From NCBI GenBank assembly GCA_964497475.1, contig CAZCDM010000001.1, forward strand, positions 1 to 61,485: DNA of 61,485 bases, given 5' to 3'. Below, piece after piece: positions 4,925-59,700 of the stretch. Under the pieces are notes generated by a model that had not been told where the DNA came from, did not search any database, and saw nothing but the letters and a program-made list of their open reading frames with translations. The translations under genes were made by a program, and so were the position numbers. Origin of the DNA: an uncultured Planctomycetaceae bacterium. GTDB lineage: Bacteria > Planctomycetota > Phycisphaerae > SM23-33. The number at the start of each line of letters is the position of its first letter. Within the stretch, counting starts at the first letter, position 1.

Positions 4925-4925
4925 G

Positions 4926-8491: not shown

Positions 8492-8728
8492 ATGTCTTTG
8501 ACCTCGAAAGCGTACCAACGTCTTTGCCACATGTATCGCGTTGTTCTGATGAAGATGCGTGTGAAGAACTTCATGCAGTTTGCGTATCACTCGCCATTGG
8601 CGGGCAAACGCAAGGGCAGGGGCGGTCTGCGCCGACGGCGAGGTGGCGAGGACGGGGCCACTGCGCGCGGAGGGGGTGTTGCGCCATCCAAGCGTATCGA
8701 GATGCTCGAGCCGCGCGTCATGCTTTCC
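8492..8728 (+). other. N-terminal leader: Arg/Gly-rich stretch followed by the LEPRVMLS motif (8705-8728)
   Basis: Translation: MSLTSKAYQRLCHMYRVVLMKMRVKNFMQFAYHSPLAGKRKGRGGLRRRRGGEDGATARGGGVAPSKRIEMLEPRVMLSGTPL. There is no classical hydrophobic signal peptide. LE(P/D)RxLLS after a basic stretch is a motif I recognise from the N-termini of large Planctomycetota (and some Verrucomicrobiota) extracellular proteins. Confidence 0.6.
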
Positions 8729-35700: not shown

Positions 35701-38700
35701 GGCTGGGGTGGATCTGGGCAATGGCGAGCGGCCTCGATTGATGCTCAGCGGAAGCCTCTTCGATGCGGGCGGCCCGACCTTCAGCCACGAGCATCTCGAC
35801 TCGCTGTTGAGCTTCTCGGACTTCGGCCCGATGGACCTGATCGTGATGTTCCAGGATACCCTCACCTGGCTGGAAGACTTCCGGGACAGCGACCTGTTCC
35901 AGACGGAAATTCCCTTCGTGAATCTCTCGCTGAGCGACGTGCTGGACTTTGCCAGTGCCTTTGATGAGAACATCCTCAGCAGGATCGATTTCCAGAAACC
36001 CTACGTCGAGCTGGCCAGTGGCACCGATGGCGTGCTGACGCTCGACAGCGACTTGTTTACCTCGACGGCAGTGACGTTCGATAGCGATTGGGTGGGCGAA
36101 CAGATTACCCTGGATGGCATTGACACGTTCACCATTGAAGAGGTCATCGATGACAACACCGTTCGCCTGGACGGTGTGGCCAACGGCGATCTGGCCGACG
36201 TGGTCTTCGCTGTCCACGAGCCGCAGGGCGACATTGAGACGATGCAGGAATTCGTTACCGCGGTGAATAACTCGGGCATCCTCGGTGGCCTGTCGCTTGG
36301 ATACGACCCGGCTGAACAGGTCTTCACGATTCCACTGTCGTTTGACATGAGCCTCCCGGCCGATCAGTTCAATGACCTGCCCATCGATCTGGGCTTCGAT
36401 CTGGGCGGTGATCTGGCCGGTGTGGATATCAACGCCGATGCCGACCTGACCGCCGATGTCCACGGTGCGTTTGACCTGGTGGTCGATTTCGATCCCAACT
36501 CGCTTCCGGCGATGATGATCGACAATGCCACAATCACCGCCAACGCGGCGTTTGACGTCTCAGGCCTGACGGCCGAGGCCATGCTGGGCTTCCTGCGGCT
36601 GACAGCCGGCGGACCTGACAGCGGCGTGCACTTCGCCGCTACCGCCACGGCCATGCTGGACCGCGACGGCGATGCCACCACCACCGACGACCGGCTGTTC
36701 GGATTTGACGACCTGATCAACGGGGAATTGGTCGATTCGTTCGACTTCGAGTTCACCGGCGATGCCTGGGCCCGCTTGCGGAGTCTCTCGGCTGGTACCG
36801 GCACGTGGGACGTGCCCATCGCCGAAGACGCGGAAATATCTGTCACCCTGCCGGACCTGACCGACTGGTCGACCGTCGAGGTTGTCACGCCGGACCTCTC
36901 GGGGTTGCTTGATTTCAGCGGCATTGACTTCCAGACCATCATCGACGCTCTGCAGATGGGGGTGGACATCGTCCAGCAGTCGCTGGCCGACCAACCCTTC
37001 TACAATGCGACCATTCCCGTCATCAACACGTCGCTGGCCGACACATTTGCTTTCATTGACGGCTTCATTGATCAGATCGACGAGGCGGCCTCGAACCCCG
37101 CCGGTGCGATCCAGGATGTCGAGGAAGCCATTGAGCGGGCTCTGGGCATTGACGACGCCGAAATCGACGGGTCCGGCCAGGCGATCGCAGCGCATGAGCA
37201 GGCATTCGCCCTGACGCTCGATACCGTCAATGAGGTTCTCAACGTTCACATCAACTGGGGCGCGGTCTACGCCGATGCGTTCGGCTTTAACCTCGATATG
37301 ATGGGCCTGTCGGGCGGCTTCGAACAGATTGCCAATTTTATGGACGTCAGTGCCGAGTTGGCGCTGGAAGCCTTTGCCGATCTGGTCATCGATGCGGGGA
37401 TCGACTACAGCACGCTCGGCCAGGGCGGGGGCCTGCCGGAAATCTTCCTCTATGATTACAACGACACCTTCGACCCGGCCGATGCGAGCTCGATCGAGGG
37501 AACCCACGTCGAAATCGGCGCACGGGTTTACGGCGACGACCTCAATCTCGCCTTGGACTTTGGCCCGCTGCAGGTCGGCGTGCTCAACGGCTGGGTCACG
37601 CTTGACGGCGATGGCGATGCCACCACGGACGACTTTGCTACGGTGCTGGTCTACCTCGATCAGGAGGACGAATCCGAGATCGCCGACGATGGCCGATACC
37701 ACTTTGGCCAGGAGTCGCTGCTCGATAAGAACCTCCAGTATGATATTACCGGCGGGTTCGATGTGACGCTTCCGCTGGATATGACCGTGCTTGGCCTGGA
37801 CCTGCCGGTCGGTGAGGATCTCTACATCCGCGCCCTGGCCGAAGACGGTCAGCCCAGCCCGCTGAAGCAGATGTTCACGTCGCTGATCGATCCGGATACC
37901 AGCTTGGGCGACATTCTCGAACCGGGCACGGGCATTCTCGATACCAATGCCCAGACCGTCCTGACTGAAATTCTGAACAAGTTTGATCTTAACGGCGGGA
38001 TGTTCTCGCTGCTGGGCCTGCTGAACGATCCGTCCTTCCTGCTGGATGGGGTGGACCTGGCCCTGGGCAGCCTGGAAGACGTGCTGAGCTCGAACCTGGC
38101 TGTCGACCTGCCACTGATCGGCGATAAATTGGCCAACGCGGCCGACTTCCTCCAAGAGATGCGGACGGGCATGCTTGCCGACCTGCGCGAGAAGCTCAGC
38201 GGCAACGGAAAGGCTATCGAGTACATCCAGGAAACCCTCTGGGACGTATTCGGCCCGACCGGTATGGATATCGTGCTGGACACCAACGCCGATGGCAGCA
38301 TCACGCTGGCCGATGTGATGGTCGGCTGGTACGACGCGAACGGAGTGTGGCTGGAAAGCTGGGAAGTTGGCGATGCGATTCCCGAAAACGCCGACGCCGT
38401 TCAGTTCGACGTGGCCCTGGGCGGGACCGCCTTTGCCACCGGTATCGACATCCCGCTGGATATCGACCTGCCGGGCTTTAGCCTGAACGTCGATGGTGGC
38501 TTTGCCCTGGAGATGGGCTGGAGCTTCGACTTTGGCATGGGCATCAGTCTGCTGGACGGGTTCTACCTGGCGACCAATGAAAGCGGCGAGAACCCCGAGC
38601 TGGAAGTCGGCATTAACGCCTTCCTTGATGGCGAGCCGATGGATCCTGACGTCACCACACGCTTCGACGCGGAAGGCAAGCTGCTGTTCTTCAAGGCCAC

Positions 38701-41700
38701 CGTGGAAGATACCGATCGCGATCCGGATACGCCGGGCTTCCAGCCGGGCGGGCTCTTCGGCGGTCTGACGGTCGATATTATCGGCAATGAACGTGACCGT
38801 CTGACACTTGACCGGATGCTGACGAACTTCAAGGATTCCTTCGACGTTTCGATGGGGGTCGAGGCCGACCTGTTGCTGGATATGACGTTGGCGATCGACG
38901 GCGCCGGCGGCCTGCCGACGCTCAAGGCCGACTTCGTCTTTGACTGGGCCTGGAATCTCGGCGAGGAAATGGAACTGCCCGATATCGGCCTGCAGAATGT
39001 TCGCATCGATGTGGGCGGCTTCGTACGCGACTTCCTCAAGCCGATTGTCGAGAAGATCAGTGACGTCCTCGAGCCCTTCATCCCGCTGGTCGACGTGCTG
39101 ACCCAGGATCTGCCCGGCCTGGATCAGATTCTCGACGATCCGAACCTCATGGGCCTGATCAACCTGATCCTCGAGCTCAAGGGGCGCAAGGCCATCGACT
39201 GGTCGTTCGTCTACGCCGTCGACGGGTTCATTGACTTCGTCCAGACCGTTAACAACATGACCACGGCCAGCGGTGAAATCCTGCTGGGCGACCTGATGGG
39301 CCTGGCCTCGGGGAACATCCAAGCCCGTGAGAAAGCCACCCTCGATGACTTCCCGACCGAGGTCACGATGGAAGGCACGAACAGCAGCTTCAATGCCGCC
39401 AGCATGCCGTTTGTCTACTCCGGCAAGAACGCCGATGGCAAGCCGAAGATCCTCTTCGGCCCCGACGAGGGCGACACCCCGGCCATGCTGCGGTTTGATT
39501 ACATCTTCGACCTGCAGAACTGGATGCAACTGCTTTCGGGCGGCGATGCGACGTTGTTCACCTTCGACGTTCCGAAACTGGAAGTCTCCTTCGACTTCTA
39601 TCAGACGCTGGTGACCTTCCCGCTCGGACCGGTTCTGCTCGATATCAGTGCATTCGGCAAGTTCAAGGCCATGGCCGACCTGGCCTTTGGATACGATACC
39701 TACGGCATTCGCCAGGCTATCCGGAGCCGCAACCCGTGGGACGCATTCGACGGGTTCTTCGTGGCGGATTACTCCCTGGCCACCTGGACGGAAAAGCCCG
39801 AGCTGACCTTCAGTGCTGAAATCGGGCTGGCCGCAGCAATCAACGTGATTCTCGTCGAGGCCGGCCTGGAAGGCAGCCTGATCTTCGAGACCGATATCGA
39901 CCTGCAGGACATTGCGGTTCCCACCCTGTACACCCTCATTGATGCCACGGGTGAGAAATCATCCAATTACGACGAACTGATCGACAAGGTGGATGATACC
40001 TTTGAGATCGGCGGGGTAACCTACGGGCAGGACTGGGAATCGGATGGCAAGATCCGTGCCAGCGAAATTGTCACGATGTGGAATTACGAAAACGGTGGGT
40101 TCAAGAACCTCGTGAACCTGACAGCTGAGCTGCGGTTGAAGATTGCTGCGTTTGTCGATGTGGGAATCAAGATTCCGTTTGTCGGTAAGGTCATGAAGCG
40201 GATCATCGACATTACGCTGGTCGATTCGACTCTGCTGGAGCTGGAATATAACGCGCCCAACGTCCAGCCTGTTCTGGGCGAACTCAGCGGTGGAACCCTG
40301 ACGCTGAACACCGGTGAACGTGCCAGCCAACGGTTGTATCTGGATACCGAAGATGGTGGCGAAAATGTCCGCCTGATCGGCGACAGCAACGACCTGTATG
40401 TGGTCTTTGGCGACTGGGTGCAGAAGTTTGAAGGTGTGACCGAGGTCATTGCCGATGGCGGCGAGGGCGACGATGTCTTTGACGCTTCCGAGGCCACCGG
40501 CATTACGGTGACCTTCGACGGCGGGGCAGGCAAAGACCGCCTGATCACCGGTGAGGCTGGCGGAACCTTGTATGGCGGCCTCGGCAAGGACACGCTCGAT
40601 GGCAGCCTGGCCACGGCGGCAGTGATCCTCGTTGGCGGCGAGGGGGACGATTACCTCATCGGTGGTGTCGGCGATGACAAACTGACCGGCGGGCTGGGTG
40701 ATGATAAACTCATCGCCGGAGCCGGCAATGACGAACTCGACGGCGGCGAAGGAGTTGACACGCTGCAGGGCGGTGCCGGCGACGATACCTATCTCTTCGA
40801 GGAACTTTATGGCATTGACCGCTTCCGCGATACCGAGGGGATCGTCACGCTGGACTTCTCGGCCGTTCACGCACCACTGACCGTTACGGTCAATCGCAGC
40901 GGGATTACGGCCCGGCTGGATGACGGCAGCGAACTCTCGGCCCGTCGTGCCGATATCGATCATGTCAAACTCGGCCTGGGGGATGACCTCGTCGTCATCA
41001 ACGACTTCCCCGAAGGCGAGCTGACCCTGACCGATGCCGGCGGCAGCGACGTATACGAAGTGCACCTCGGCCGGGCCACCTCGCCCAAGGCCGAGGGTAT
41101 CATTGACATCATTGATGAGACCGGCACCGATGACGAAGTCGTCATCGAACAGAAATACGACCGGATGCCCGTCGAGCTGCGCACCTATGAGGTCAAGAAC
41201 GGTCGTGAGGTGCTGACCTTCTCGCAGGAGGTCGAGTACGAAACCCTCATCGGCCAGGCAGCCCAGTTTGACGGCGAGATGATTGAGGGCTATGGCGAGG
41301 GCGTATCCTGGACGAACACGGAAGAAGGCTCGGAAGGCATTTCCGACTTGGGCGATGTGCATTTCCGTGCGATCGGCAAGACTCTCAAGGCCGACAGTGA
41401 ACTGCGGGCGACGGATATCACCATCGAGGTCGCTGAGTTGGTCGATGTCAATGCCAGCCTCGTCGCGACTGATTTCCTGGACATCACCGCCCAGGACCTC
41501 GACGTCGACGCCACCATGCTCGATGCCCCCACGCAAAGCTGGACCCTCACCAACGGAATCGAAATCGATGCGCTGGTTCAGTCCTCTGCCCGCGTCTCCG
41601 CAAGCGGTGCCTACCTGACGTTCAGCGGTACGATGGACTCAGTTGACGTCGACTGGGACATCGTCGGTGCGATCAATCTGACCGGCTCGTTTACTTCGAC

Positions 41701-44700
41701 CGGCCAGTGGGACATCGACTCGGACAGTCTGCTGGTAACCAATACCGTCAGCGGAAATAACATGACCTGGACCGTCACCAACGGCGTGACGATGACGGGC
41801 GATTTTACCTCGACCGGCCAGTGGGATATCAACTCCACTACCGCCACCCTCACCGGCACGTTGACTGGACATGACCTCACCTGGGACGTCAGCGAGAGCA
41901 TTGATCTGGATGCACCGGTGCATGTGGACGGACGGTTCAACGCCTACACGGGCACGATGCACACCCACCAGCGGCTGGATATCCACCATGCCGAGTTCGT
42001 CGTCGATGCCGGCGACCTGACCGTGGATGCGGAGTTCAACGCCATCAGCGATGGGATCATCGACGTGCTGGTTACCGGTACCGAGGCCGACCTGAACCTC
42101 GCCGCCGACGTACGTGTCTCCAGCGGAGACAACGCCGACGCATTGGGCAGCGGCTCGGCCCACCTGGTCGTCGCCGATGGCGATATCCTCTTCGATGCCG
42201 ATGCGACGCAGTTCCTTGGCAGTGGCAGCCACTTCGCGCTCAGCGCGGTCGGTTTTGGAGATGTCATCACCTCGACCGTCAAGGAGATGACGCTCTCGAC
42301 GACCGGCACGTCGCACAACAACGGCGACATCTACGTTATCGAGACGGACGATCTGACGATTATCGGCGAGGACCTCACCTCCGGCGATGCCACCGGCGTG
42401 ACCGGCATCTGGAGTGCCTATGGCATGATCGACATCGATCTGTTGGCTGAGGACGCCCTCTTCACACTGGCCTCGGGCAGCATCGTGGCCGCCTACGAGG
42501 ACAAGGACATCGACCTGATGGCGGATGACATCGACTTCAAGGCCGGTGTCGATACCGTCCGGGCCAGCGGCGATCTGATCGTCCATACCACCCACGAGCC
42601 GCGGCAGTGGACCTTCGGTACCGCAGCGGAGGACAACCTGGGCAATAACGAGGATGAGGGTGATTACAACCAGGGCCTCATCGACCACACCCACTCGATG
42701 GACCTCTCGTCGCGCGATCTGGCGGCCCTGGCCGACGGATTCGCCCACATTTACTTCGGCCGGGATGGCGTCGATAACGACATGACCATCGGACATGCGA
42801 CCTTCCATGATCCGGTCACGATCTGGGCCGGTGATATGACTGTCCGCGGGTTGTTGGCGCTGACATTCGACATTGAGGACGAAGAAAATACCAAGCTGAA
42901 CCTGGCCCTGTCGAACCTCTTCGTTACGCACGATCATATTCACCCGACCAGCACGATTCAGGGCAGCGGCATCGCCGCCGAGGAGATCGTGATCCTCGCC
43001 GATCAGGATGTCAGTATCGAGGGCGTCGTTCGGGCGGAGACGACACTGGACATTGACGCCGGCAGGGAGATCACGACCGACCAGGCCGAAGTCCGCGCCG
43101 GCGAGAGCCTCGATCTCTATGCCACCGGCAGCCTGTCGTTCACCGACAGCGTCCTGCGAGGCCTGACCGACAGCAAGGGCGTCACTGCGGGGTCGTTCAC
43201 CGCCGCGGGTCTGGCCGGTGAGGGGTCCGGATCGATCTTCATCGATACCGTGACCATCAACGCCAAGGATCTCTTCCAGCTGTCCGCCGCGACGACCTTC
43301 ACCGCCAATGCCGGCCAGTTCTATGCCACCGGCACCCACGGCGTGGTTGATATCGACGCGGTGGATTCCATCACCACCACCGCCACGATCATGCAGGCAC
43401 CGGATCGTGTTGATATCCAGTCCAGCCAGGGCGATATCACCTTGAATACGACCGGCCTGACCGGCTTGGGCAGTGAGAGCACCGAGGAGATCATCCTCAA
43501 GACGCTCGGCGAGGCTGGCGGCACGGCCGGTGGCGACATCACCATTGTTCAGGGAACGCAGTTTGCCCGCCAGCTCTATCAGGTCGATGCAGCCGATGAA
43601 TTCATCACCGACAGCCTCTACATCACGCTCGACGGGGACATGGGCACGATCGACATCAAGACCGGGGCCGACCTGTCGATTACGGGCAACGCCTACCTCG
43701 AAGCCAATGAGCTGATCTGGCTGCGGTCGATGAACGGTGACGTGACGGTGGAGGGCGTCCTGCGGGGCCCGTTTGACTCCACCGTCAACCGGGTCGTGAT
43801 CAACGCCAGCCAGGACGTTCACATGAATGCCGAGATTTACTCCTGGGATCTGGTGCAGATCATCGCCGGGCAGGGCTTCTACTCGACGAATATGCATCTC
43901 CAGGCCCTCAGCGAGATCGGCACGGTTGAAGTCCGCACCGGGCTGGATCTGGATTACGACGGCATCCTCGAGGCGACCCAAAACGTCAGCCTCATCACGC
44001 AGGGCTCGCTGACACTCGGCGACCGAACGATCATCAAGGGCCTTGAGCCCAGCAAGACTCAGAGCGTCCTGCTGCAAGCCAATGACGATATCTCCATCGA
44101 GGGTATGGTCGCCGCGACCGACTGGATCAAGGTCTACGCCGGTCAGGACGGCACGGGTAGTGTCTCGGCCTCGACGTTGGGCGGACTGGAAGTCACCAGC
44201 CTCGATGATGGGCATATCGATGTCGATGCCGGCCTGCAGGAGGGCGACATCACGCTGAATACCGATCAGTGGCTCAAGGGGCTGGCGATCGATCTCCACG
44301 CCCTGGCCGGGCAGGTCGAGGTGATGGGCAACTCCCGTATCGAGACTGACCTGCTTACCGCCCGCGGACGCGATGGCGTGGCTCTGAAAACCGACGCCGA
44401 TGAAATCGACGCGAAGGTTCTCGCAGCCGGCAACGTATATATCGACGAACTACACGGCACGCTGGTCAGCACAGGCACGACGGCTGACGGCTTGATTACC
44501 ATCACTGCCGTGGGCGACCTCCGCATTGCCAATGTCCACTCTCTCAGCGACGACGAGGATAATGACATCCGCCTGACCTCCACGGAAGGCCAGATCTACG
44601 TCGGCCAGCTCAACGCCGGTTCTCTCGGCGACGTGTTCCTCACAGCCAATATCGGTTCGGTCTGGGATGACCAGGGCCTGATTACGGCCGAAGAACTCAC

Positions 44701-47700
44701 GGTCAACGTTCAGGAAAACATCAAAGTCAACACCACGGTCGACACGCTCTACGCGACCAGCACCGGTATCGGTGACCTGACTATTGTTGAAACCGACAGC
44801 CTGCTGGTCGATACGGCTGATATCAACAGCGGGGCCATCAGCATCACGACCAACGGCGATCTGCTGGGCGGTACGCTGACGTCGATCGACAATCTCGTCG
44901 AGCTGCGGCAGCTGGGCACGGGCCGAATCGAGGTCTCCCAAGTCGATGCCGGTGAAATGGGCATCGTCAAGTTCTACACCGAAGATTCCGCCACGGCCGA
45001 CGTCAAGGCCAACGACCTCATCATCGACGCCAGCGGCGCAGTGACCCTGACGACTGACGTGACCAATTTGCAGGTCCTCGGCAGCGGTGCCATCTCGATT
45101 GACGAAGTCGACGATATCAATCTCATCGACGTAGACATGGCCGGCGGCAGCATTGATGTCACCGCCGGCGATATCATCCGCGCCTACGATACCGTGGCCA
45201 TCGGCTCGACGATCAATCTGACCACGACGGGCGGTGGCGATATCCGCACCGGCCAGGTCAACACCGGCGAGACCGGTGTGGTGACGCTGAGTTCTACAGG
45301 CGGCATTAATCCGTTGATCGGTGACGACGGGTACATAACGGCCGATCATGTCTATGCCACCTCTGTCGATGACATGATTCTCAATCTGGACGCGACGAAG
45401 CTGACCGCTTCGACCACCGAACAGGGCCACATCACCGTCTACGCTGTCGATGCCATCGAGCTCTTCGACGTCTCTGCCGCCGATGGCGAGATTCGTGCCG
45501 AAGCACACGGCGATCTGGTGGCTACGAATGTCCGCTCCCTGACCGACAGTGACGAGAACCGTATCGTCCTGGTGACCCACGACAATGCGGACGTGCTGGT
45601 CGATTATATCGATGCCGGCATGACCGCAGGTGGGCTGACGATCACTTCGGCCGGCGATATTCGCGAGGTCAACGCCACCGACGCTGCCGCCGATATCCTC
45701 GCGCATACCGCGTTGCTCTCGGCCGATGGAACCATCGGCTCGACGAGTGATTCGACCCAGGATATCGATGCCGACGTCGATGTGTTGACGGCGGAGACCA
45801 CCGGCAGCGGCGCCCTGCGCCTCCACGCCGTTGACGACATCAACCTGATGAGCGTCACCAGTGCGGCCGGGCCCATCGATATCACCGTTGATGGGGATCT
45901 GCGGGCCACGGCCGTTACCAGCCTGAGTGACACTCCCGAGGCGGAGATTGCCCTCAGCACGACGGGCGATGGCGTCATTGAGGCGGGCCTGATTACCGCG
46001 GGCGCCACCAGCGGCGTGATCCGACTCGACTCGGCCACCACGATTAATGACTTCGACGGAAAGATCATCGGCCACGCCCTGCACGCCACTGCAGTCGATG
46101 GCATGCTGCTGGATACCACGGTCGACGATCTGTACGCCTCGACGAGTTCGGCCGGCCGCATCGACGTCGTCGAAACCGACGCGATCAACCTGCGGAATGT
46201 CACCACCGCCGACGGTCTCATCGACATCCAGGCCTCTGGAGAGATCACCGCAACCTATCTCGCCAGCCTGACCGACGCCGACGACAATGACATTAACCTG
46301 ACCGTTACCAGCGATGGAGATGGCCTGGTGGTGGGCGAAATCTACGCCGGCCAGCTCGGCGATGTCAGCCTGCTTTCCACCGCCGACATCACGCAGTTGA
46401 CCGCCGGCGTGCTGCAGGCCGACTACCTGCTGGCCGATGCGGCCGGGCTGCTCGACCTGCGTACCCAGGTCCACACGATCCGTGCCATGAGTCTCGGGCT
46501 GCTGCGGATTGACGAACTCGATGACCTGATCGTCGAACTCGCCCAGAGCGACAACGCGGCCATCCACATCACCGCTGGCGGAGACATCACCGCCACGGCC
46601 ATCCGCTCCCTCACCGATGCCGAGGACAACGACATAACCATCACGGCCACGGACGGTGGCTCGATCCTGATCGATCTGATCTCCGCCAAGTCCACCGGCG
46701 ATGTCACCCTCACCGCCGACGGTACGATTGAAACCGCATTGGGCGGCAAGGTCGTTGCCGAAGAGCTCATCGCCACCGCAGGGGCTGCGATCGACCTGGC
46801 CACGCAGATCGACATCCTCACCGCACAGGCGACGGCTGGTGACATCACCATCCATGACACGGCTTCATTGGAGTTGCTCGATGTGGTCACCACCGACGGT
46901 GCGATCACCATCCTTGCCAGCGGCTCGATCACGGCTACGCAGGTGGCCTCGCTGTCCGGCGATGAGCAGGATGACATTACCATCGAGACGACCAATCTCG
47001 ACGCACTCCAGCCGGACGATGCGGCGATTTCGATCAATTCGATTTTCGCTGAAGGGCAGGCCGATGTCATCCTCACCAGCGCCGGGCTGATCCTGGCTCT
47101 GGGGGGGACGCTGACGGCCGACAAGCTCAGCGCTACGGCCCAGGGTGCGATGACCCTCAACACCAGCGTCAGTACCCTCCATGCCGTCACGAGTGAGCCC
47201 GGTGCGATCCAAGTGACCGAAGCCGACGCGATTACCATCGAGGCCATCAGCTCCTGGCAGGGGCCGATTGCCCTTACCGCAGGCGGAACGATTACCGCCA
47301 CGCAAATCGTTTCGCAGGTCGACTCGGAAACCAATGACATCACGCTGACGACGACCGATGGCGGGGCGATCAACGCGGCCCTGATCGACGCGGGTGCTGG
47401 GGGCGATGTGGTCCTGCACTCGGCGGGTGGTATCGTGGCCACGGTACGCAGCGAGGAACTTGATATCATCGCCGCTGGGGATGTCGACCTGACGACCACC
47501 ATCAACACGCTGACGACGGCGACGACGGCTCCGGCGGACATCACCGTCCATGAGACCAACGAAATCACCCTGGACGGGGTGACCGCCCAGGCAGGTGTGA
47601 TTGACATCACGGCCAGCGACACCATCATTGCCGAAAGCGTCCGTGTCGGGACCGACTCGATCGAGAATATCATTCGACTGACGGCCCAGGGCTCGGGTGC

Positions 47701-50700
47701 GATCCGGGCCGGTGCGATCGACGCCGGTGGTGTCAACGGCACGGTCGAATTGACGGCGGCTACGGAAATCACCGACCGCGATGGCAAGATCATCGCTGGT
47801 ACTCTCAAGGCCCGTTCCCAAGGCGCGATGCTGCTTGATACGACCGTCGGCCACCTTGACGCGGCGGCGTTGGGCAGCGGTGGGCTGACGGTTACGGAGA
47901 CCGATGGCGTTGTGCTGGACAGTGTGCAGACCTTCGCTGGTCCGATCACCGTGATCACAGGCAGGGGTACGCTTGAAGCCGGGCTGGTAACCAGCCTCAG
48001 CGACTCGGACGATAATGACATTACACTATCGGCCCATGGCGCCGCTGCCGAGATTCGCGTTGGTCAGGTCGATGCGGGCGTTACCGGCGATGTCTACCTG
48101 ACCTCGGCCGGTACGATTGGCAAGACCGCGGACGGCCTTTTGACTGCCGATGACCTTGTGGCTGTCGCCCCGGGCGATATCGACATCGATACCGCCGTGC
48201 AGTCGCTGACGGTGGAATCGACCGCCAGCGGGCAGGTGACCATCGTCGAAACCGACGCCGTTGAGCTTACGGACATCCGCACCGCCGATGGTTCGATCAA
48301 CGTGACGGTGCATGGCTCGGCCGATGTCGAGGCGGTCCACGCGGCCGGGGCGGGCGGCTCGGTCACCGTCGACGCCGACGGGCGGATGAACGTCACCGGT
48401 CAGGTCGTTGCCACAGGTGACGATGCCGTCGTGACCCTTCTGAGCGATCAGGCGTTCTATCTCGGCCTGAACACCCGGGTCGAGACCCTCGGCACGGACA
48501 GCTCCATCGTCATTACCGCCGCCGATATGGCTGGGCCCAACGCGGGTCTGTATGGTGACGTCATCGCCGGCGTCGAAATTGAAGAAGTTACCGACCCAGA
48601 CACGGGCGAAACAATCACCGAGCGAACAATTATCGGTTCGGCGGCCAGTGCGACCATCACCTCGGCTGGTGGGTTGGATATTGGCGGCACGGTCACCACA
48701 GCCGGTGCGATGAACCTCCATGCCAACGGCGAGTACCTCGGTGACAGCATTACCCTCGGCGGCGAGGTGCGCAGCCTCGAAGCCGACAGCCAACTGAAGC
48801 TCAAGGCAGCCGGTGATATCAGCCTGACTGGCGGCGTCTACGCCGACGGGGCCCGCAGCGACCTGTGGATCGAATCGACTGGCGGACAGGTGGTCTTGAA
48901 CTATGAAGCGATTGCCCAGGATGATATCACCATCAAGGGCGGAGCCCACGGTTCGGGCGAAAGCGTCCTCATCAGCAACACGGGCGTGGTACGCAGCCTC
49001 TCGTCCAACACCTTGATCGATATCGACGCCGAGAACCGTGTCACCATTCGCGGCGTACTGGAAGCCCTGCAGAGCGGCAGCTCGATCGACATCAATGCGG
49101 GCGATCGCATCTTCATCGACAAAGCCATCGAGACCGCCGAGGCCATTACCCTCCGCGGCGGCGACGATGCGTCGGGCAAGAGTATTCTGGTCGAAACGGC
49201 TGGCGGGCTGACGGTCACGAGCACGACCGGCCTGATTGATCTCCACGGCACGCAGGATGTGGTGATGATCGGCTCGATGTACGCCGAAGGAGCCCAGGCG
49301 GACGTCCAGATCACTTCCGATGAGAGAGTCAGCATCGGCGGAGTCACCCACAATGTCGGTCAGGGCGAAGCACCCACGGAGACGGGCGGATCGATTATCG
49401 CCGGCGACGGGGTTACGCTTTCCGGCGGTGCCGACAGCAGCGACATCAGCGTCTACGTTCAGGGTGTCAGCACGATCACGACGACCGGCTCGGCGGGCGT
49501 GATTGACATCGACGCTGTCGAAGATGCCGAAATCATGGGGCACTTGAATGCGGCCCTGGGCGAGAGCAGCTCACAGATCGTGATCACTGCCGGCGATCAG
49601 GTCCGCGTCGGACAGAACCTCCACGCCGGCAGCCGGATCGAACTGGCCGGTGGGGACGACGCCGTCGTTGCCGGTCAGGCGCACTCTGGCAAGAGCGTGG
49701 TGTTGCTTGGGTCGGTTGATCTGAAGACGACAGCGACCAACAGCGAAATCGTACTGACCGGCCCGGATCGGATTGACCTGCTGGCCGGCAGCGAACTGCG
49801 GGCCGAGGCGGAAGGTTCGAAGGTTCGTATTGGCACGCAGGACGGGACGAATGGCAAGATTTACATTGGCGGTGCGATTGTTGCCGACAGTGCGGTGGAG
49901 TTCTACAGCGGGCAGGATGACTCCGGCAGCGATATTGAAGTGGACTACTCCGGCTCGATCGAGACACAGAACGGCTCGATTGAATTCCATGCCGGTCTGC
50001 AGGGCGTGATCCTTGGTGATGTGCTGGCACGCGGAAGCGATGCTGACGGCACGGGTGCGGATGTACTGCTGACGGCCGGTGAGACGATGACCATCGGCGG
50101 CACCATCGAAGCGACGGAGAATATCACCGTCACCGTCAATGCCACCCCGGACAGTGGCTCGACGAGCCTGCTGACTGAAAACACCAGCCGCATGCGATCG
50201 ACCGGTTCGGGAGGCACGCTTACTCTGACCGGTACCAACGACGTATTGATCCACGGCTCGATCGGCGTGACGCCGGAGGGCTTCAGCACGGGCTTGGACA
50301 AGATTGACATAACCTCGACGGAGGGCAAGATCAACGTCGGGGCCGAGAATGGATGGATTCAGACCGACGGGCAGATTCGTCTTGATGCGGGTCTGCTGGA
50401 AATTGAGGGCGTGGTGCGGAACACGGCGGCATCGCTTGCCGATGGCCTGTACGAAATTGATATCCATAACAGCGATACGGTAAACATTACCGGTACGCTC
50501 TCGGCGGTCGGTTCGATCCTGGTCGATGCCTATGAAACGGTCAGCGTCCAGGGCAGTGTGATTGAGTCGACCGGTACCGGTGAGACGATCCGCATTGAAT
50601 CGGATGACCGCATCGATTTCGGCGGCCAGGCGGCCGAGGTCAGCGGCCAGACCGTCCAGCTGACCGGATCGGTCTTAGGTACGGGTGCGGTGGAAGTCAT

Positions 50701-53700
50701 TGCCGCCGGCGTGGTGGACCTGAGCAACGGCTCGACGCTGGCCACCAGCGAAGCCGGCAGCTCGGTCAGCGTTACGGGTCGGACGGTAGAACTGGCCGGT
50801 GCGATCTACGCCGGTGGCGATTCCGACGGGTTGACTGCGGCCGATGCGGACCTGGCCATCAACGCCACCGAGCGTGTCTCGGTTGGCACGAGCACCATGG
50901 GCAGCATTCTGGCCGCCTCGGGCGATCTGACGATCGATGTTGCCGATGGCGTCTCGCCGGTGGACTTCGAGCTGTCGGCTGACAGCATCATTCGCTCGAC
51001 GGGCCTGGTGGGCAATGCCGACCCGAGCAGTGTCACGATTACCACGGACCATGACATGTACATCGACGGCCTGATCGAAAGCGTCGACGAGGGCTCGGAT
51101 GTGACGTTGAATTCCGGTGGACTGATCATGATGGACGGCTTTGTCGAGGGTGAGGAGTCGGTCACGATGACCGGCGGGGATCATGTCTCGGGTGTGAGTG
51201 TCATGCTCAAGGCGTTGGTCTTCGAGACGGATGCAGAGGGGAATATCCTCAACGAGGACGGCCTGCCGGTCGATAGCTTCGGCGGCGACCCGGCCCGCGT
51301 CAGTGGCGGCGTGATCAATACGGCTCCGGGTGGATCGATCAACCTTGGTGGAACCGGCCGGATCGTCATCGACGGCATGGTCGGGCGTGTCTACACCGAC
51401 GAGAATGATCTGCCTGACGTTGATGTCTCGACGATCGATATCTCGACCGACGAGGATATCTATGTGATGTACCTGGTCAACGCCCAGGACCGCATTACGA
51501 TGGAAGCCCGCGACGTGATGATCCTCAACGAGGCGATGGTGATTACCCGCGCTGACGATTCGAGCATCTACGTCCAGGCCGACCGCAACATGACCCTGGC
51601 CCAGGGTCAGGAGTTCGAGCGGGCCCGTCTGGAATCCGGCAATATGGTCCAGGTGTACGGCGGCGATATCCGTGTGGACGGAACGCTGCGTGCCCGCAAT
51701 GCCGGCGGTGTGGTTCGACTGGATGCGATGAATGACATCACGGTCACGGGGCATGTCGATTCCTACGGGACGGTTGGCCTCAATGCCGGCGTGGCGAGCA
51801 ACCAGGATCCGGCGCTGCTCCTGGCGACGCAGTTCACTTCGGAATCGCTCTCGACGGAAGGCGATATCCTGATTTCCGGTGAAGGCCAGCTCGAAGCCGA
51901 CGGCGACGTCGCCCTGACGGCTGGCGGGAATGTGGACATCGAAGCCTACGCCGTCATGCAGGACGATCAGATCGCCGTGCCCGAGCCGTATATCTCGGTC
52001 GAGACTCGCTATGTCCAGGTGTTGACGGGCACGAAGCAGGTGGCTGTCGGGTTCATCGACGTGCCGGTGGTCAAGTGGGTCGACAGCACGGAAATCGTGC
52101 AGACCGGATGGGATCCGATCAAGATCGGCGAGTGGTACACGACAATCGACGTCGATGTCGACCAGATCGGTTGGTTCGATTCGGCGACGGAGACCGAGTG
52201 GGAAGCCGGCGTGGACGGCCCGACCCTGGTGGACAACGGGACGGACAACAGTCAGTTCACGCTCGATTACACCGACGAGACGGCCGAGTTCGTTAAGCTC
52301 TATCAGGCGAATTACGATACCGGCAGCGGGCGATATCACATTGTTCGCAACGGCATCCAGGTCGTGGCTGTTGAGAACAACCAGTGGGTGGCCGACCATG
52401 TCGCGCCCGAGGCGCTGCAGCCTGCACCGGAGTTTGACGGATATGTCTACCTCGACAAGAGCGTCTACGATCAGCTCCTGGCCGACGGGGTCAACGACAC
52501 CACCGAGGTGCTCAAGCGGCATGGGTATGATCCGATCTGGTCTGGCTCGACGCAGTGGAAGTACGTCCATGCCGAGGAGTTCCTGGGCGAGAACTACAAT
52601 GCGGACAATGACGAGCACAACTTCTATGTCAAGGTCCAGGTAGACCCGCTCACGGGCACGAGTGCCGAAGAGGATATTCAGATGGCGGTGGCCGGCGTGG
52701 CCGATGCGGTGAGCTACGAGGATATCGGCGATACACGGCTGGACGTGCAGCTCAAGCTGCATCAGATCGGCTGGTGGAATACCGATACGCAGACTGGGCT
52801 GCGAGACAGTCGCGCCCAGAGCGACTCGCCGGACGACCGTGTCGAAGACGACTTCCAGCTGGGCGTGCCCCGGCCGGACGGCAGCCAGTGGGTCGAGTGG
52901 TACGAGCTGGAGCTGATCGGTTCCACGCGTGAGGTGACTATCACTGACGGCCGAAGTGACTACGTCTACGCGGACAACCCGGTCTGGGCGGCCAGTGGCA
53001 TTACCCAGACGCACGGCATTGAGGCGGACTTCGATGGCACGACGCAGATGGTCTATGTCCAGGTTCCGGTGGCGATCACGCAGGTCAACGGCGGAGCGCA
53101 CATGGATCTGGCGAGCTTCGACTGGACGGCTGACCTGACCGGATCGACGGTCTACAGCGAAGCCATCGACCCGGCTGCCCAAGCGGATGTCTTGGCTGCG
53201 TTGGACTTCCTGGCGGTCGAAGACCTGGCCGACTACACCGATGGCGCGGGGCAGGTCGACCTGGCTGCGATGGTTGATGATGGCGTGGTGAGCATGACGC
53301 AACTGGTGAACCATGGCCTGGTCTCGAAATACGACATCAGCCAGGGGCTGCCGGTGACGATCACCGTCGATGCGACCCAGATCGAAAACTTCGATCACTA
53401 CTCCGTCGGTCATCACGCCGAATACCTTGGCCAGTGGCGGGACGACTGGGGTATGTACCAGGGCAATGCGGCCGAGGGGATCGACCACAACAGCGGCCTG
53501 ATGGGCAGCGACGAGACGGTCGATATCACGGGCACGCACACCTACAAGGGCACGACCTACGATGTGCCTGGTTATACCGATGTCATCCGTCGGGAAGGGT
53601 CGCAGGATGGCCGCCACGAGGTGCTTCGTAATTACAGCGATGCCTATACCTGGGAGCGGCAGGACTGGAACGATGAATTCGGGCGATATGGTGCGAGAGT

Positions 53701-56700
53701 ATCCGCCGATCATGGCCTGCGTCCGGTCGGTTCGGTGATCCATATCACCAACGCCGAGAGCGAAACGCAGGTGATGGCGGACAGCAACAGTGGCGACTAC
53801 GACACGCGAGACAGTGGCCATAATGAAGCGGTTAAGATCCTTGTTCGCCGCGATGGCACGAATGCGGGCAAGCATGAGGTGTGGTACAGCTACAGTGCCG
53901 AATATGACATCGTGCGGGATAACCTGGGCCACTATTACGGCTCGTCCTATCACGCCGAAGACAGCCTCTTGCCCATCAATACGAGCAATACGACCTCCCG
54001 CGCAGATGGCAGCACGTCCGTGCCGGATGGCTTTATCCGCAAGCTCGTCGGCTATGCAGGCACGGGCAACAATCGCCATGAGGTCTGGCAGGAGATGCGG
54101 CAGTACAACTGGGAGGGCAGTGAGTACACCGTCAAGGTGACCGATGAAAACCACGGCCTGCGGAGCGTGGGTTACACCTGGTGGTCTGGGACGCCGTGGC
54201 AGACCAATGGCTGGCAGTATACGATCATGGAACACCTTGACGAGCGGGGCAACCATTACGAGCGTATCCGTCAGCAGAAATATCTGGGCAATTATCGCGA
54301 CGTCTGGGACGAATGGACATCTGATGCCGGCAGCCACGACACCGGCCTGCGTTCGATCGGCACGCACTGGTGGGATTCCAGCCGCACCGACTGGACCGGC
54401 AGTGGTGGCAGTAAGACAGCTAGGCAGTATAAGTATTGGGTCGACGACTATGCTGGCAGCGATTCCAACCGTCATGAGGTAGTCAAGCGACAGTACTATT
54501 ATGGCAACTACCGGGACTACGAGTCTACGTCTGGTTGGATTAAAGCTAACGTCAGCATATTTGGCGGAGGCGCACCAGAGATCGGGCATGAGGAAATTCT
54601 TAGTGATGGTCGGATGCGCAGGATTGATGACACCAAATGGGCATGGTTCAGCTGGCATGTTAAATATAAATACTATTCTGTCAGCTATGATCACTGGGGC
54701 AGCGAATACTCTGGAACAGGGAAGTATACGACCGCCGATGATAATCACCCGAATGTAGGGGATGTTCTGGAGACTTATTCGGGTGGAAGCCGGGAAGTCC
54801 TGACGGGTAAGGGGTGGCAGAATAATCACTACATTCTCGAATATGAACGGCAAGGCAAATCGTATGCTCACTGGTCGAACACCGCCACGGTTAACGGCAA
54901 TACGACTACGGCGGAAAGCCAGACCAACGGTCTCTCTGCCGGGTATGTCATCAGCAACGGGGACGGTACGCGCGAATACTTCACGGGTAATTACCGCTGG
55001 AGCGGCTCGGACTGGGTCGCTGTCTGGGAACACCAGGACAAGAACTTCGTGGTCGGCGGCTCGGAGACGATCGTGCTTAACTCCGCCGCGACCGGAGCCT
55101 ACACCACCGCAAAGAGCGATCTGGAGTCGCTCAATGACATAGGTGATACCGAGACGCTCAGCGGCGGGATGATGCGCGAGCTGGTGGGCTACGAGTGGGT
55201 TGGAAACCGCTACTACGAGGTATGGGATCATTTCAGTGCCGAGTACAAGGACTTCCAGGATCTCGAAGGCGGAACGCTGTACGGCGACGTCTACCAGACC
55301 TGGCAGACCACGACGGGCAACACATCCAATTCCGGCAGTGCCTACTGGATCCTCAACCCCACCGGTTTGGTCGATTCGAACTGGGAGTCGTTGCCGGGCA
55401 ATGCGGACTATCATCAGGACTACGCCGGTTATGTGCTCTATCATCCGAACGTGAATCTTGTCGGTACGGTGGAATTCCGAGCGGGCAATCCTTCCCTGAT
55501 TCGTGAATGCATCGATCAGCGATGGGAAGACTACGACGTCGATGGCGTGAAGCACTGGCGACTGGAAACCCGTTGGCAGAACAAGAATGTCAATAAGGTT
55601 ACGGCCAATCCGCCTTCGCTCAGCGAAGCGCTAATCGGCAAGGGTACGCTCATCAGCAGCAACCTGAACCTGTATCAGCGTGTCGTGGCTGGGCCTTCCT
55701 TCGAGATGATGCGCGAGTATGGTGGCGAGTGGCAGGCTGTCACCCGAGATGCCTTGGACAAGGCCGGAGCGATCTACGCCTGGCGGTACTCGGATGCGAA
55801 GTATCAGAACTACCGCAACATGGTTGCCAACAATTATGATGGCGGAGCCTACCGAGATTATCTGGGCAGCTCGACCGGGCGAACTACCGACGCCCTGAGC
55901 CATCTCAAATCACTGAGTGCAGATGGCAATGGCTATGATGGCGGAGACGTCGAAAACGTCACCTATACCAAGACCAATGACGGGACACGGGTCTTTGATG
56001 AATATGTCTGGGTCAACGATAACGTTTACGAAACCTGGGATTACTACAGCGACTGGTACAAGGACTTCACCGTAGGCGGGCACAGTGGTGTGCATGTGTA
56101 CTATGACTTCAACGGTGCCGATGCGCCCTCCACAGCCGACCAGGCTGCCTCCTCGCTGAAGGATACCTGGACTGGGGAGTACGACGGCGCATACACCAAC
56201 GCCGAAACTCTGGTTCACAGCAACTACCCGCTCGAAATATTTGAGCCGATTACCGGTGGTATACGGACGGTTGTCGGGCACGACTGGGATGGAGATACAT
56301 ATTATCCCTATTGGAAGCATGAATCGGACGTCTATGATCACTACCAGCCCTACGCTGGCAGTTCCGATTATCACTTCGATGCCGATAATCCCGAACTCTA
56401 CCCCGAGCGGTTCAGCTATTACGACAAGGCCGACTGGCGTCGTGAGACGCAAAGCCGTCAGTGGGATCAGGTCCTCGTTGGCTTCCATGATCAGGATCAG
56501 GGCTACTATGACGACTTTGGCCAGTGGGTCGAGGTGGCTGATGGCTACCAGAACCATCCCGAAGCCGGCAACAATAACGACTATTGGGATGCGGATGTCC
56601 AGTGGGTCTCCGACATGGTGCGCGTGGACGACTTTGCCGATCGGTATCATTACGGATTCCACGGTATGTATAACTGGCATGACGTGGAGGACGAGCGTCA

Positions 56701-59700
56701 GCACCTCAACTACACGGTCACGAGCAACACCCACGAGGTTTGGACCCTCAAGCCGCACCTTGAAGAGCGTGATATCAAGGTCAAGGTCATCGAGTACGTT
56801 CAGGAAACGCAGTGGGAGACCGTGCCCGTCTACGAAGAGCGCCCCGTCTACTCGACCAAGCGCGTCTACGAAGACGATCCGGATTTGGTCAACTATGCCG
56901 CCTTCGAGAACGAGTCCATCCTGGCTTCGGGCATTCTGGATGTCGACGCAGGCGGGGATGTCAGCCTCAGCGGCAAGATGGACGCGGCCTCGGCTGACAT
57001 CTACGGCGGTGGTGTCGTCACCATCAACGGCATCCTTCCTGACGATGCACCGGCCGGTACGCTGGCTGCAACGTCCATCCTGCTCGGCCAGGGCGGTCGG
57101 GTCGATGTCACCAGCGGCGGCAACCTGATCATCGGCGATGCGGCCTTGATCGGCATCGATCAGGGCGAACTGGCTCCGGTCTCCACCAGCATGAGCTTCT
57201 CGGCCGGTGGGGATATGATCCTGGAAGGCAACCTGGCCGGCACGGATGAAATCACCATCACCGCCGACGGTGATGTCCAGCTGACCGGCGAGGTCCAGGC
57301 CGGCTCGGCCATCAGCGTCACCGCCGGTGCCGACGGAACCACCGGCGATATCACCGGGAATATCTACACGCTGCTGGCGCTGACTGGCCAAGGCGGTACG
57401 GTCGACCTGCTGGCCGGCCTGACGGGCGGCGACATCATATTGACCGATTCCGAGATCGCTACCGCGGGTGGTACGATCAGCCTGACTGCGTCGGCCGGCA
57501 CGATCGTCCAGACCGGTGGCCACATGGCAGGGCAGAGCCTCTCGGCCTCGGCCCTGAACGGGCTCAGGGCCAACACCGCCGTGGCGGTCATCACCGAAGC
57601 CCTGTTGGCCGGCGCCGGCGCGATCGATCTGACCACCCTCGGCGATGTTCGTGCCAAGAAGATCATTGCCCATGACGGCAGTGTCCGCATCAAGAGCATC
57701 GGTGAACTCATCGCCGAAGAAATCGCCATCACAGTCGATCGTGAGATTAACGATCTGGAAATCCAAACCATCCGACCTGAGACGGGCCAGGGCGATCTGA
57801 CCCTCGGCACGGTCAGTCTCGGCCAGCTTGGCGATGTGACCTTGGACGTCCAAGGTGCGATTGATCGCTGTGAAGATGAGGCTGTCACGGCGGCCAATGG
57901 ACTGTTCATCACCGCCGCCGGAGGAGTGAACCTCGCCACCGCGGTCGATACCCTCACGGTCGAAACAACCGCTTCGGGTGACGTCGCTATCGACGAAGCC
58001 GATGAACTGTTGCTGCCCACGGCGGTAACGGTCGATGGTGCAATTTCCATCACGACCGGCGGCGCACTGACGGCGCACGACGTGCGCTCACTGACCGATG
58101 CCGAAGCAAACGACATCCGTCTCATCACCGAATCGGGTGACCTGCTGTTCGACAGCGTCGTGGCCGGCACCTATGCCGCCTCGGCTGAGCAGGCCCAACA
58201 GATTCAGCTCGACCGCCTCAATACGCGGCTGATCCAGTTCGGCCTGGGCACGGTCCTGACCGACGCCCCGACCGAGCTGACCCTCGACCAGGTCCGAGCC
58301 ATCGTCACGCTGGTCGATGGTGGCGATCAATCGGCCAGCCTCTCTGTAGATGGTGTGCAGATCACCTGGGCCGATGCCGACGCAATCTGGACCGGCCTGA
58401 TCAACTCCATGCAACTCGATGCCGTAGCCAACGCCATGGCCAACCTTGCCGATGACGCCACCCAGGACGAAATCGACCAGGCCGTCGCCAAAGCGCAGGC
58501 CGAAGCGCAAGTCGAAGCCGTCGAACAACTCCGTCTCGAGAAGAAGTTTACCTCGCTCGGGGACGTGACACTCACCTCGGCTGGACTCCTCCAGGAGCTC
58601 TCGCCGGATGACGCCGTCGACCTCATTGCCGACCACGCCGTGCTGACCACGCCCTCGGCCATCCGTGGTATCGAACTGGCCCTGAATTCCGTCGAGGTCT
58701 ATTCGACGGCCCAGGGAGATATCGAACTGTACGACCTGGATGGCTTTGAAGAGAAGTCCACCGGCCTGCGCGTTGACGCAGCCCAAGCCGCCGACGGGTC
58801 CATCACCATCCAGGCCAATGACGGTCTGGAAATCGGCTCGGCCCGGGCTCTGGCTGACGGGGCCGACATGAACTTCACCGCCGTGGGCGGAAATCTCACC
58901 GTAAACGACTCGGCCGATACCATTGCTCTTCAGGCCAACGATGAAATCCGTCTCCATGCCGATGGCGGGATGAAGATCGAAAAGGCCCTCCAGGCCGGCA
59001 CTCTGATTGATATCTACGCGCAGACCACACTCAGCGGACCCGATACCGAAGTGATCTATGGCGTAGGAAGCAATGCCGATCAGGTCATGGAGACCATTGA
59101 ATATCCGCTCGACCTCGTGGTCACCGGCCCGGCCGGTGTGATCAATATCTACACCGGCGATTCTTTCTCTGCTACCGGTGCGCTTCAGGCCGATCAACTC
59201 GTGGCCATTACTTCCGGGGGCGATATCAATCTCTCCGGCACGATCACCGGCTACAACAACGAGTCGGTCAGTGATGTCATCCTCAACGCCGAGGGGCTGG
59301 TGACGTACGATTCCGGCGCAGGAACCGGGTACGTCGACATCGCCGATGGGGAGGTGTCCGCGGCCAACCTCTTCAAGGTCACCGCCTCCCGCACCCTCAA
59401 AGTCACCAGTTGGAACCTCTCCATGACCGGGCCGGAGGGCAATATCGAGATCATCACCGGCGACGATATCATTGTCGACGAGGATATCCTCCTCGAAGCC
59501 ACCGAACGGATCTATCTCGAGTCCACCGCAGGCGACATTGTCGTCGATGGTACACTCCAGGGGCGCGATGGCGGGCTGCTTAGCGATATTACCCTGCGGG
59601 CAGCCGGCGATATCGATCTCGGCAGCAGCATGACCGCTGCGCATCTCATCGATATCAGCGCCGGTGGACAACTCTATTCCGAGTCAATGGACCTGACTGC

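Follow-up and report, generated by a model that had tools for sequence, protein, structure and literature searches.

A rare aromatic module interrupts the solenoid shaft of a planctomycetal LEPR-XLL-type giant protein

The window analyzed here is a stretch of 61,485 nucleotides (positions 1 to 61,485 of contig CAZCDM010000001.1, assembly GCA_964497475.1) from an uncultured Planctomycetaceae bacterium. Most of it is occupied by a single giant open reading frame (ORF) on the + strand, whose stop-free frame spans 8324-61483 (17,720 codons) and runs past the window end. Near the N-terminus of the encoded protein, IEMLEPRVMLSG corresponds to the LEPR-XLL motif (NCBIfam NF012209, 19.9 bits against a curated cut-off of 17), located at residues 68-84 counted from the ATG at 8492. 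The host protein, very long and carrying an N-terminal LEPR-x-LL motif above the cut-off, thus belongs with the LEPR-XLL giants. Close to the 3' end of the window, the solenoid repeats of this protein are interrupted by an island of Trp-, Tyr- and His-rich sequence, which is the subject of the present analysis. We refer to it as the aromatic module; it appears to found a domain family of its own, although the protein that carries it is of a familiar type.

The module is defined by an alignment of seven sequences, the window copy and six homologous modules, at ~38% identity (alignment A1). The A1 profile matches the giant ORF solely at amino-acid index 14541-16200, corresponding to nt 51944-56923 (822 + 573 bits), and these edges agree within ~30 nt with the boundaries of 51970-56910 given in the original prediction. 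That prediction also described an abrupt switch from Asp/Gly/Thr/Ile-rich solenoid to Trp/Tyr/His-rich sequence, and a comparison of 51970-56910 with the rest of the giant ORF bears this out. Tryptophan accounts for 3.9% of the island versus 1.0% of the rest, tyrosine for 7.5% versus 1.9% and histidine for 3.3% versus 1.2%, giving 14.8% versus 4.0% for the three together (Fisher p 5e-59). With phenylalanine included, aromatic residues and histidine make up 16.8% of the island. Asn, Arg and Lys are also enriched (12.3% versus 6.8%), while leucine is depleted (4.8% versus 11.9%). Counted in bins of 300 residues, W/Y/H rise from ~0-6/0-11/0-9 elsewhere to 8-16/14-32/5-15 at nt ~52.4-56.9 kb. The solenoid is of the same type on both sides, and the island, as had been proposed, interrupts it as a discrete non-solenoid module.

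Homologues of the module are scarce. An exhaustive phmmer search of 1.84e9 representative proteins, with the aromatic part (nt 53444-56923) as a single-sequence query, returned 12 matches (P0001-P0012; best E 2e-134). A single 2.2-Mb contig, ENA ERZ28669879 ctg35853, is the source of the four strong matches (P0001-P0004; E 2e-134 to 2e-36, 37-45% identity), and P0005 is a fragment from a 4-kb JGI contig. Full or near-full copies of the module are found in only two other sources among the 1.84 billion representatives searched. The remaining matches, P0006-P0012, are confined to the tail and belong to partial proteins of metagenome-assembled genomes (MAGs) from Thermodesulfobacteriota, Pseudomonadota and Pirellulaceae. 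Homologues in other phyla are thus limited to the last ~140 residues of the island plus the solenoid turns that come first after it, which suggests that this conserved tail may be a general solenoid-entry element. BLAST homology spans the whole island, including its less aromatic 5' third, and the matches begin ~100-140 residues 5' of the island and end ~130 residues past it, that is, within the flanking solenoid. A search with A1 of GTDB species genomes and JGI metagenome contigs found no related loci; evidently this collection does not include the genome from which the window comes. A word-index protein search with the island, A1 and the core of part A (alignment A4, see below) gave no match and carries no weight, as it missed P0001 and P0003-P0005 even though these were among the queries.

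The homologous modules measure ~800-1,050 residues, compared with 1,660 in the window copy, which is longer because it contains more internal units and several private insertions. All landmarks of the A1-defined family are present in collinear order in the window copy, namely two QIGW motifs and NxxHNFYVK in part A, the junction EYLGxWRDDWG, at least three HE(V/I)W hairpin units, and the closing part C with its series VGxHxQDQG ... DDFExRxH ... YxVT. Tryptophan is the best-conserved residue class, with 80% identity against 50% for tyrosine and a mean of 38%. All homologous modules contain 2.7-4.0% W and 4.8-7.8% Y irrespective of the G+C content (GC) of the genome, and the module is kept at ~38% identity between genomes of 62% and 47% GC. 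The His residue of the HEVW hairpin is invariant across modules. In P0002 and P0005, His-rich loops lie beside the hairpins (e.g., YPHHDHHHDIEFW and EEHQHHTHTYY); such runs, a possible sign of metal binding or of a response to pH, are absent from the window copy.

Neither the island nor the six homologous modules matched any family in Pfam (E<=1), NCBIfam (E<=0.1) or PHROGs, and sequence searches of the PDB (phmmer with the single sequence and hmmsearch with the A1 profile, E<=10) returned only a chance match at E 2.2. AlphaFold2 was run with two alignments that together cover the whole island (A2, 8 rows; A3, 15 rows). The resulting models have a mean predicted local distance difference test score (pLDDT) of 46 and 42; apart from an alpha/beta part A of moderate confidence, they show only isolated beta-hairpins. 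In part B the pLDDT is mostly 20-35, such low values being expected with alignments of 8-15 rows. Foldseek searches with these models, both against the PDB and also against BFVD, gave no match at E<0.01. The suggested resemblance to carbohydrate-binding, beta-propeller or beta-trefoil surfaces therefore found no counterpart, as no carbohydrate-binding module, lectin, propeller or trefoil was matched in Pfam, NCBIfam, PHROGs, the PDB or Foldseek. Two families of repeated hairpins were considered specifically: neither RHS_repeat nor CW_binding_1 of Pfam matches the island or the six homologous modules. Spacing and consensus differ from those of RHS/YD repeats, and the units lie 70-270 residues apart, a spacing foreign to CW_binding_1. 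Judged from sequence, the module is a rare, so far undescribed family without detectable relation to the families or structures searched.

The module is tripartite, consisting of parts A, B and C (Table 1). Part A contains two 'QIGW' sub-repeats (amino-acid index 14613 and 14813), the NxxHNFYVK motif and a ~60-residue insertion that is private to the window copy. In its core (A4, six sequences from two genomes), 34 of 137 columns are invariant, including the polar positions H5, N18, H21, K26, Q28, D84, D131 and R133. AlphaFold2 models residues ~70-375 of this part with pLDDT 55-80 as a mixture of helix and strand. The junction motif that follows is kept in all homologues, with invariant columns G489, E493, Y494, G496, W498, D501, W502 and G503.

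The original prediction had noted a loose HEV(W) motif recurring in the island with irregular spacing, and this proved to be the signature of a genuine internal repeat in part B. The strict form, G[TS]..[NGD][RK]HEV[WVL], occurs four times in the island and nowhere else in the giant ORF; the looser form [RKT]HE[VI][WVL] occurs five times, again without any occurrence elsewhere in the ORF, against ~0.01 expected from shuffled sequences. A hidden Markov model (HMM) iterated over the homologues identified seven robust copies and one weak copy of a ~28-residue unit in the island. The consensus of the unit is R-x-L-V-G-Y ... G-x-N-R-H-E-V-W ... Y-x-x-Y-x-D, its copies are irregularly spaced (70-270 residues), and several are preceded by GLxx(I/V)G. 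The homologous modules contain 3-5 units each, the window copy having the most. The repeats emerged by HMM only; self-BLASTP of the island detected none. At the units covered (3, 5, 6 and 7), AlphaFold2 draws a two-stranded beta-hairpin with pLDDT ~60-75, and the hairpins are not assembled. Four additional hairpin-like segments chosen by eye, one of them NGWQYTIMEHLDERGNHYERIRQQ at amino-acid index ~15294, did not rise above the shuffled null and were not counted; AlphaFold2 draws hairpins at two of the four. In part C, hairpins are predicted with pLDDT up to 81, and a conserved hairpin leads into the next solenoid, which AlphaFold2 predicts at pLDDT 80-89 right after the island.

Table 1. Features of the aromatic module, its host gene and the neighboring genes in the window (nucleotide positions).
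Feature	Position	Strand	Remarks
Aromatic module (island), 1,660 aa	51944..56923	+	Single copy in window; A1 profile envelope, alignment, composition
Part A, less aromatic alpha/beta region	51944..53422	+	Normal GC; invariant columns, AlphaFold2
Junction motif YLGQWRDDWG (family consensus EYLGxWRDDWG)	53423..53455	+	Opens repeat region
Part B, degenerate aromatic repeats	53456..56500	+	Lower-GC part; each repeat built around a conserved beta-hairpin
Hairpin unit 1	53582..53659	+	VIRREGSQDGRHEVLRNYSDAYTWER; HMM E 4e-11
Hairpin unit 2	53834..53917	+	KILVRRDGTNAGKHEVWYSYSAEYDIVR; HMM E 1e-11
Hairpin unit 3	54038..54112	+	RKLVGYAGTGNNRHEVWQEMRQYNW; HMM E 5e-12; AlphaFold2 hairpin E19-28/E35-45, pLDDT 67-71
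Hairpin unit 4	54431..54514	+	KYWVDDYAGSDSNRHEVVKRQYYYGNYR; HMM E 2e-7
Hairpin unit 5	55175..55258	+	RELVGYEWVGNRYYEVWDHFSAEYKDFQ; HMM E 1e-15; AlphaFold2 hairpin E400-409/E412-420, pLDDT 68-74
Hairpin unit 6	55988..56071	+	RVFDEYVWVNDNVYETWDYYSDWYKDFT; HMM E 2e-11; AlphaFold2 hairpin E670-680/E683-690
Hairpin unit 7	56264..56347	+	RTVVGHDWDGDTYYPYWKHESDVYDHYQ; HMM E 5e-12; AlphaFold2 hairpin E762-772/E775-783
Part C, conserved closing segment	56501..56923	+	WDQVLVGFHDQDQGYY ... VDDFADRYHY ... NYTVTSNTHEVW ... long hairpin KVKVIEYVQETQWETVPVYEERPVY
Tail, candidate solenoid-entry element	56600..57085	+	Island end and first solenoid turns; tail HMM 209.5 bits
Solenoid upstream of island, Thr/Ile/Asp/Gly-rich	42959..51943	+	Composition; weak tail-HMM matches to solenoid part
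Solenoid downstream of island	56924..61483	+	Same type as upstream; continues beyond window end
Giant ORF (host protein)	8492..61483	+	Probable ATG 8492; 3' end beyond window
Amidase_2 (N-acetylmuramoyl-L-alanine amidase) domain of giant protein	18338..18757	+	E 4.8e-22
Putative export operon	788-7945	+	Directly 5' of giant gene; four genes
GAF + HlyD-type adaptor gene	788-2734	+	Putative export operon
HExxH intramembrane metalloprotease fused to adaptor-like region	2741-4924	+	Daptide-type NF041824, E 1e-45
Short SecA-like ATPase, 661 aa	4926..6911	+	Without C-terminal scaffold/wing; putative export operon
Second adaptor, RND/HlyD-type	6938-7945	+	Putative export operon
Antisense shadow ORF, 1,626 aa	50675..55555	-	Longest antisense ORF; not a gene

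In the 47%-GC relative (ERZ28669879 ctg35853), three giant loci (L001, L038 and L039) each end in three tandem cassettes composed of a ~140-230-residue solenoid and a module. The stop codons of the three giant ORFs fall at an identical point of the module, '...QY(T/I)VTSIAD*' (profile position 980/1033), and no tail homology follows the stop. Because tandem cassettes stand at the end of the protein in three loci, the module constitutes a duplicable cassette that is able to form the C-terminal end. The upstream giant ORFs contain cadherin/Big_9/He_PIG arrays (P0004, P0014), and a giant neighbor carries Lectin_C. A 22,027-residue ORF (L001 23626-29408) opens with MNGQTKFKLETLEPRLLLNG (LEPRLLL), a LEPR-XLL N-terminus; hence giant proteins of the LEPR-XLL type are encoded in this relative as well. 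The three loci, with a local GC of 47%, are paralogous and are broken up by insertion sequence elements (DDE_Tnp_1, DDE_3, Transposase_29). Adjacent ORFs of 14,619 + 5,761 and of 18,592 + 5,743 residues occur, and each pair is probably one gene of >20,000 residues. Behind each locus stands an AAA-ATPase_like/PDDEXK_9 gene in one to three copies; L039 has three such AAA-ATPase/PDDEXK genes, beyond which housekeeping genes begin.

We tentatively favor the view that the island is a folded module of the giant secreted protein that displays a binding surface for a polysaccharide or another cell-wall-type polymer, a view that we consider a good possibility, though short of probable. Within the solenoid shaft of this LEPR-XLL-type protein, the module would form a beta-rich node in which the conserved aromatics, together with His, Asp and Arg residues, would make up the binding surface. 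A polysaccharide or cell-wall-type polymer would be the most plausible ligand because the same protein contains an amidase and because, in the relatives, adhesin-type arrays are present and the module is placed terminally in multiplied form. The Amidase_2 domain provides a context that would point to a cell-wall-directed function. A fibre equipped with a peptidoglycan amidase (and, in the relatives, with cadherin-like arrays) would thereby be able to attach, in a monovalent or multivalent manner, to a target surface. The hairpins that AlphaFold2 predicts at motif positions, reaching pLDDT 74-81, support this view. The proposal of a globular ligand-binding 'head' displayed on the fibre is upheld in one respect: a discrete conserved module that forms terminal triple arrays in the relative fits a displayed end-module. 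AlphaFold2 gave no globular head, but with alignments of only 8-15 rows this does not speak for disorder.

Several observations weigh against a binding module. No similarity to a known carbohydrate-binding, lectin or adhesin domain was detected in Pfam, NCBIfam or the PDB, and binding is a role that we infer. The AlphaFold2 models are of low overall confidence, too low for a fold to be assigned or compactness to be judged, and they had no Foldseek match. The window module is not terminal, since at least 1,520 more solenoid residues follow it and the true C-terminus lies beyond the window. A core with a structural role alone would be just as likely to conserve its aromatics. Finally, beyond the tail-only matches there are only two independent homologous sources, so that the conservation figures draw on a small number of lineages.

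The main rival explanation is that the module is purely architectural, serving without any external ligand as a rigid aromatic beta-sheet node, an end-cap or a fibre-fibre zipper that joins or ends solenoids or bundles fibres. We regard this as rather unlikely, although it accounts for several of the observations. Part C is conserved along with the start of the solenoid in unrelated lineages, and in the relative the module alternates at regular intervals with solenoid spacers of ~140-230 residues, the proteins ending inside the module at the same position. In addition, structural cores typically conserve Trp and Gly, and AlphaFold2 shows long hairpins only. However, the module occurs just once in >17,700 residues here, and elsewhere the solenoid breaks off or switches type without it. 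A length of 1,000-1,650 residues, including a part A with invariant His, Asp, Arg, Lys and Gln, is also much for a connector.

A bolder version of the favored binding module can be formulated, which we consider speculative and unlikely as a whole. The module would be a new fold, an array of long Trp/Tyr/His beta-hairpins on an alpha/beta base, forming the tip by which LEPR-XLL fibres recognize their target, with a short-SecA/HlyD/HExxH-protease system dedicated to the export of these fibres. It would bring the fibre, together with its peptidoglycan amidase, to the cell walls of other microbes and so serve Planctomycetota in contact-dependent attack or attachment, and the copy number of the module (one here, three in tandem in the relative) would tune avidity.

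We consider it improbable that an unrecognized enzyme, for example a hydrolase or lyase acting on glycans or the cell wall, resides in part A or makes up the entire module, with the aromatic repeats as a substrate-binding extension. The alpha/beta character predicted for part A with moderate confidence and the eight invariant polar residues of its core would suit an enzyme, as would the peptidoglycan amidase in the same protein and the degradative domains borne by giant proteins of predatory Omnitrophota (bioRxiv 10.1101/2023.11.21.568195). Nevertheless, no catalytic family was matched by sequence or fold, no catalytic motif is recognizable, and the invariance is derived from only six sequences of two genomes.

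Base composition bears on a further possibility, that the module is a cassette received by horizontal transfer from a donor of lower GC and not yet ameliorated. The GC of 1-kb windows at 54-57 kb is 0.55-0.57, compared with ~0.62 elsewhere, and the dip is confined to the 3' two thirds of the island (~54.1-56.9 kb). The 5' third (51970-53444, the first 492 codons) has normal GC, and its GC at third codon positions (GC3) is 0.81, above expectation. To obtain the expected values, the amino acids of the island were recoded with codon frequencies taken from the remainder of the giant gene. The whole-island GC is 0.577 observed versus 0.588 expected, so that about three quarters of the drop is accounted for by amino-acid composition. 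In the aromatic part, GC3 is 0.698 versus 0.760 expected (z -5.2), a residual deficit that is real but small and is spread thinly across most amino acids. The lowest 2 of 88 tiles of 200 codons fall in the island (z -3.7 each), while control segments elsewhere reach z +/-3.5. The AT-richer codon usage claimed for the island thus holds for ~54.1-56.9 kb, where the small GC3 deficit is found; it does not hold for the 5' third, and the effect is mostly compositional.

We consider such an acquisition highly improbable. The residual GC3 deficit with its two lowest tiles, the 47%-GC genome of the closest homologues, and the mobility of the cassettes within genes evident from their tandem triplication would be in line with it. 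Against it, identity to the homologues is ~38%, so that any transfer must be ancient, the flanking solenoid co-aligns with the module in relatives, and the 5' third deviates toward higher GC3. The deficit itself is small and diffuse, of a size approached by the control segments. In the relative, the modules have a GC3 of 0.50-0.57, above the 0.41-0.47 of the solenoid spacers. This deviation, opposite in direction to that in the window, is expected if amino-acid composition pulls the module toward mid GC. Recent horizontal transfer was therefore rejected as the main explanation on account of the compositional GC shift, the co-aligned flanks and the reversed GC3 of the relative, and the module was probably not acquired separately, contrary to what had been suggested.

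The antisense ORF at 50675-55555 was correctly singled out as the longest, and it is a shadow of the sense strand. All long minus-strand ORFs lie in a single antisense frame, in register with the sense codons, and the stops of this frame correspond to TTA, CTA and TCA on the sense strand. There are 33 such codons among the 17,720, and none between 50675 and 55631. The ORF is long because the Leu-poor island lacks them, and it was rejected as a gene. The shift in composition and GC, like the long antisense ORF, follows from the amino-acid make-up of the module and does not indicate a foreign origin.

A linker of intrinsically disordered or low-complexity sequence, or a mere fluctuation in composition, is scarcely credible as an explanation of the island: the pLDDT of 20-35 across most of part B would fit it, but such values are expected from 8-15 alignment rows, motif hairpins are predicted at pLDDT 65-81, the composition shift has a p of 5e-59, and an aromatic and His content of 16.8% with Trp 80% conserved across differing GC is the opposite of a disordered composition. 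The original prediction had named a GC shift fully explained by composition, combined with a predicted structure of only disorder or solenoid, as the outcome that would overturn it. The GC shift is indeed mostly compositional, and the structural outcome is approached only formally, with alignments of 8-15 rows.

Giant RTX adhesins such as MpIBP, LapA, FrhA and SiiE have long repetitive shafts with few non-repeat modules towards one end. The present system is similar in that the giant ORF contains RTX nonapeptides and the module is C-terminal in the relatives. In contrast, the module has no similarity to the sugar-, peptide- or ice-binding domains of these adhesins, and the shaft is a solenoid rather than Ig-like. 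The adjacent export genes encode a short SecA, HlyD-type adaptors and an HExxH protease. The full gene set of a type 1 secretion system (ABC transporter, membrane fusion protein and TolC) was not found at this upstream operon, where adaptors of the membrane-fusion type are present and the ABC transporter is lacking.

Choline-binding (CW_binding_1) and RHS/YD repeats resemble part B in having repeated beta-hairpins rich in conserved Trp, Tyr, Gly and Asp and present in variable copy number. They differ in being ~20-residue tandem repeats, whereas the module units are 70-270 residues apart, and in their consensus, GW.K..G.WYY for choline-binding and G...RY.YD..GRL for RHS/YD repeats compared with R.LVGY..G.NRHEVW in the module.

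The 'giant genes' of planctomycetes are on record (Reva & Tummler 2008; Kohn 2016) and have been reviewed (PMC12673574). With the LEPR-XLL giants (NF012209) the host protein shares the N-terminal LEPRxxL above the cut-off, the length of >17,700 residues and a Planctomycetota-type genome. The LEPR-XLL family is defined by its N-terminal motif alone; the aromatic module lies outside this definition and is absent from the family libraries searched. The giant proteins of Omnitrophota and other groups are of extreme length, with divergent SecA domains and cell-wall-degrading domains (West-Roberts et al., bioRxiv 10.1101/2023.11.21.568195). The present protein is alike in its length, in a SecA without scaffold/wing, in a cell-wall-degrading domain and in unannotated segments that call for structure prediction. 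It differs in that SecA is encoded by a separate upstream gene and in that the window showed no transmembrane arrays. The domains described in that report do not include the module, and the text of the report contains neither 'aromatic' nor 'LEPR'.

Giant bacterial proteins are mostly unannotated, and their few non-repeat modules are the best clues to the role of these costly fibres. The aromatic module is now defined by its boundaries, its three parts, its repeat unit, its conserved motifs and its duplicated C-terminal use as a cassette in the relative. Work on the structure and binding of planctomycetal giant proteins thereby gains a concrete target that can be cloned in pieces of 300-500 residues. 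The analysis also disposes of three cues that pointed the wrong way, namely the dip in GC, the suspected foreign origin and the length of the antisense ORF, by attributing them to amino-acid composition.

Several other features surround the module. The short SecA of the putative export operon has counterparts at 50-65% identity in MAGs of Planctomycetaceae, Pirellulales, Phycisphaerae and Sedimentisphaerales. Within the first 9,800 residues of the giant protein, the only Pfam domains at E<=0.001 are Amidase_2 and RTX calcium-binding nonapeptide repeats (HemolysinCabind), the latter at nt ~18002-18106, 5' of Amidase_2 and far from the island. Amino-acid bins across 8324-61483 show that the shaft switches type at nt ~41,600: repeats on the 5' side contain Leu, Ala, Phe and Pro, and the 3' side is a Thr/Ile-rich solenoid with hardly any Pro, Phe or Trp. 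It is this second type that contains the island. At nt ~30550-31500 (+ strand), a run without a Pfam match at E<=0.001 consists of ~60 tandem pentapeptides of the form [L/F/I][D/N][W/F][G/S/A]x (LDWSG, FDWAG, LNWGE, LNWGD and others). With 22 Trp in 300 residues, it looks like a series of Trp-centered pentapeptide repeats.

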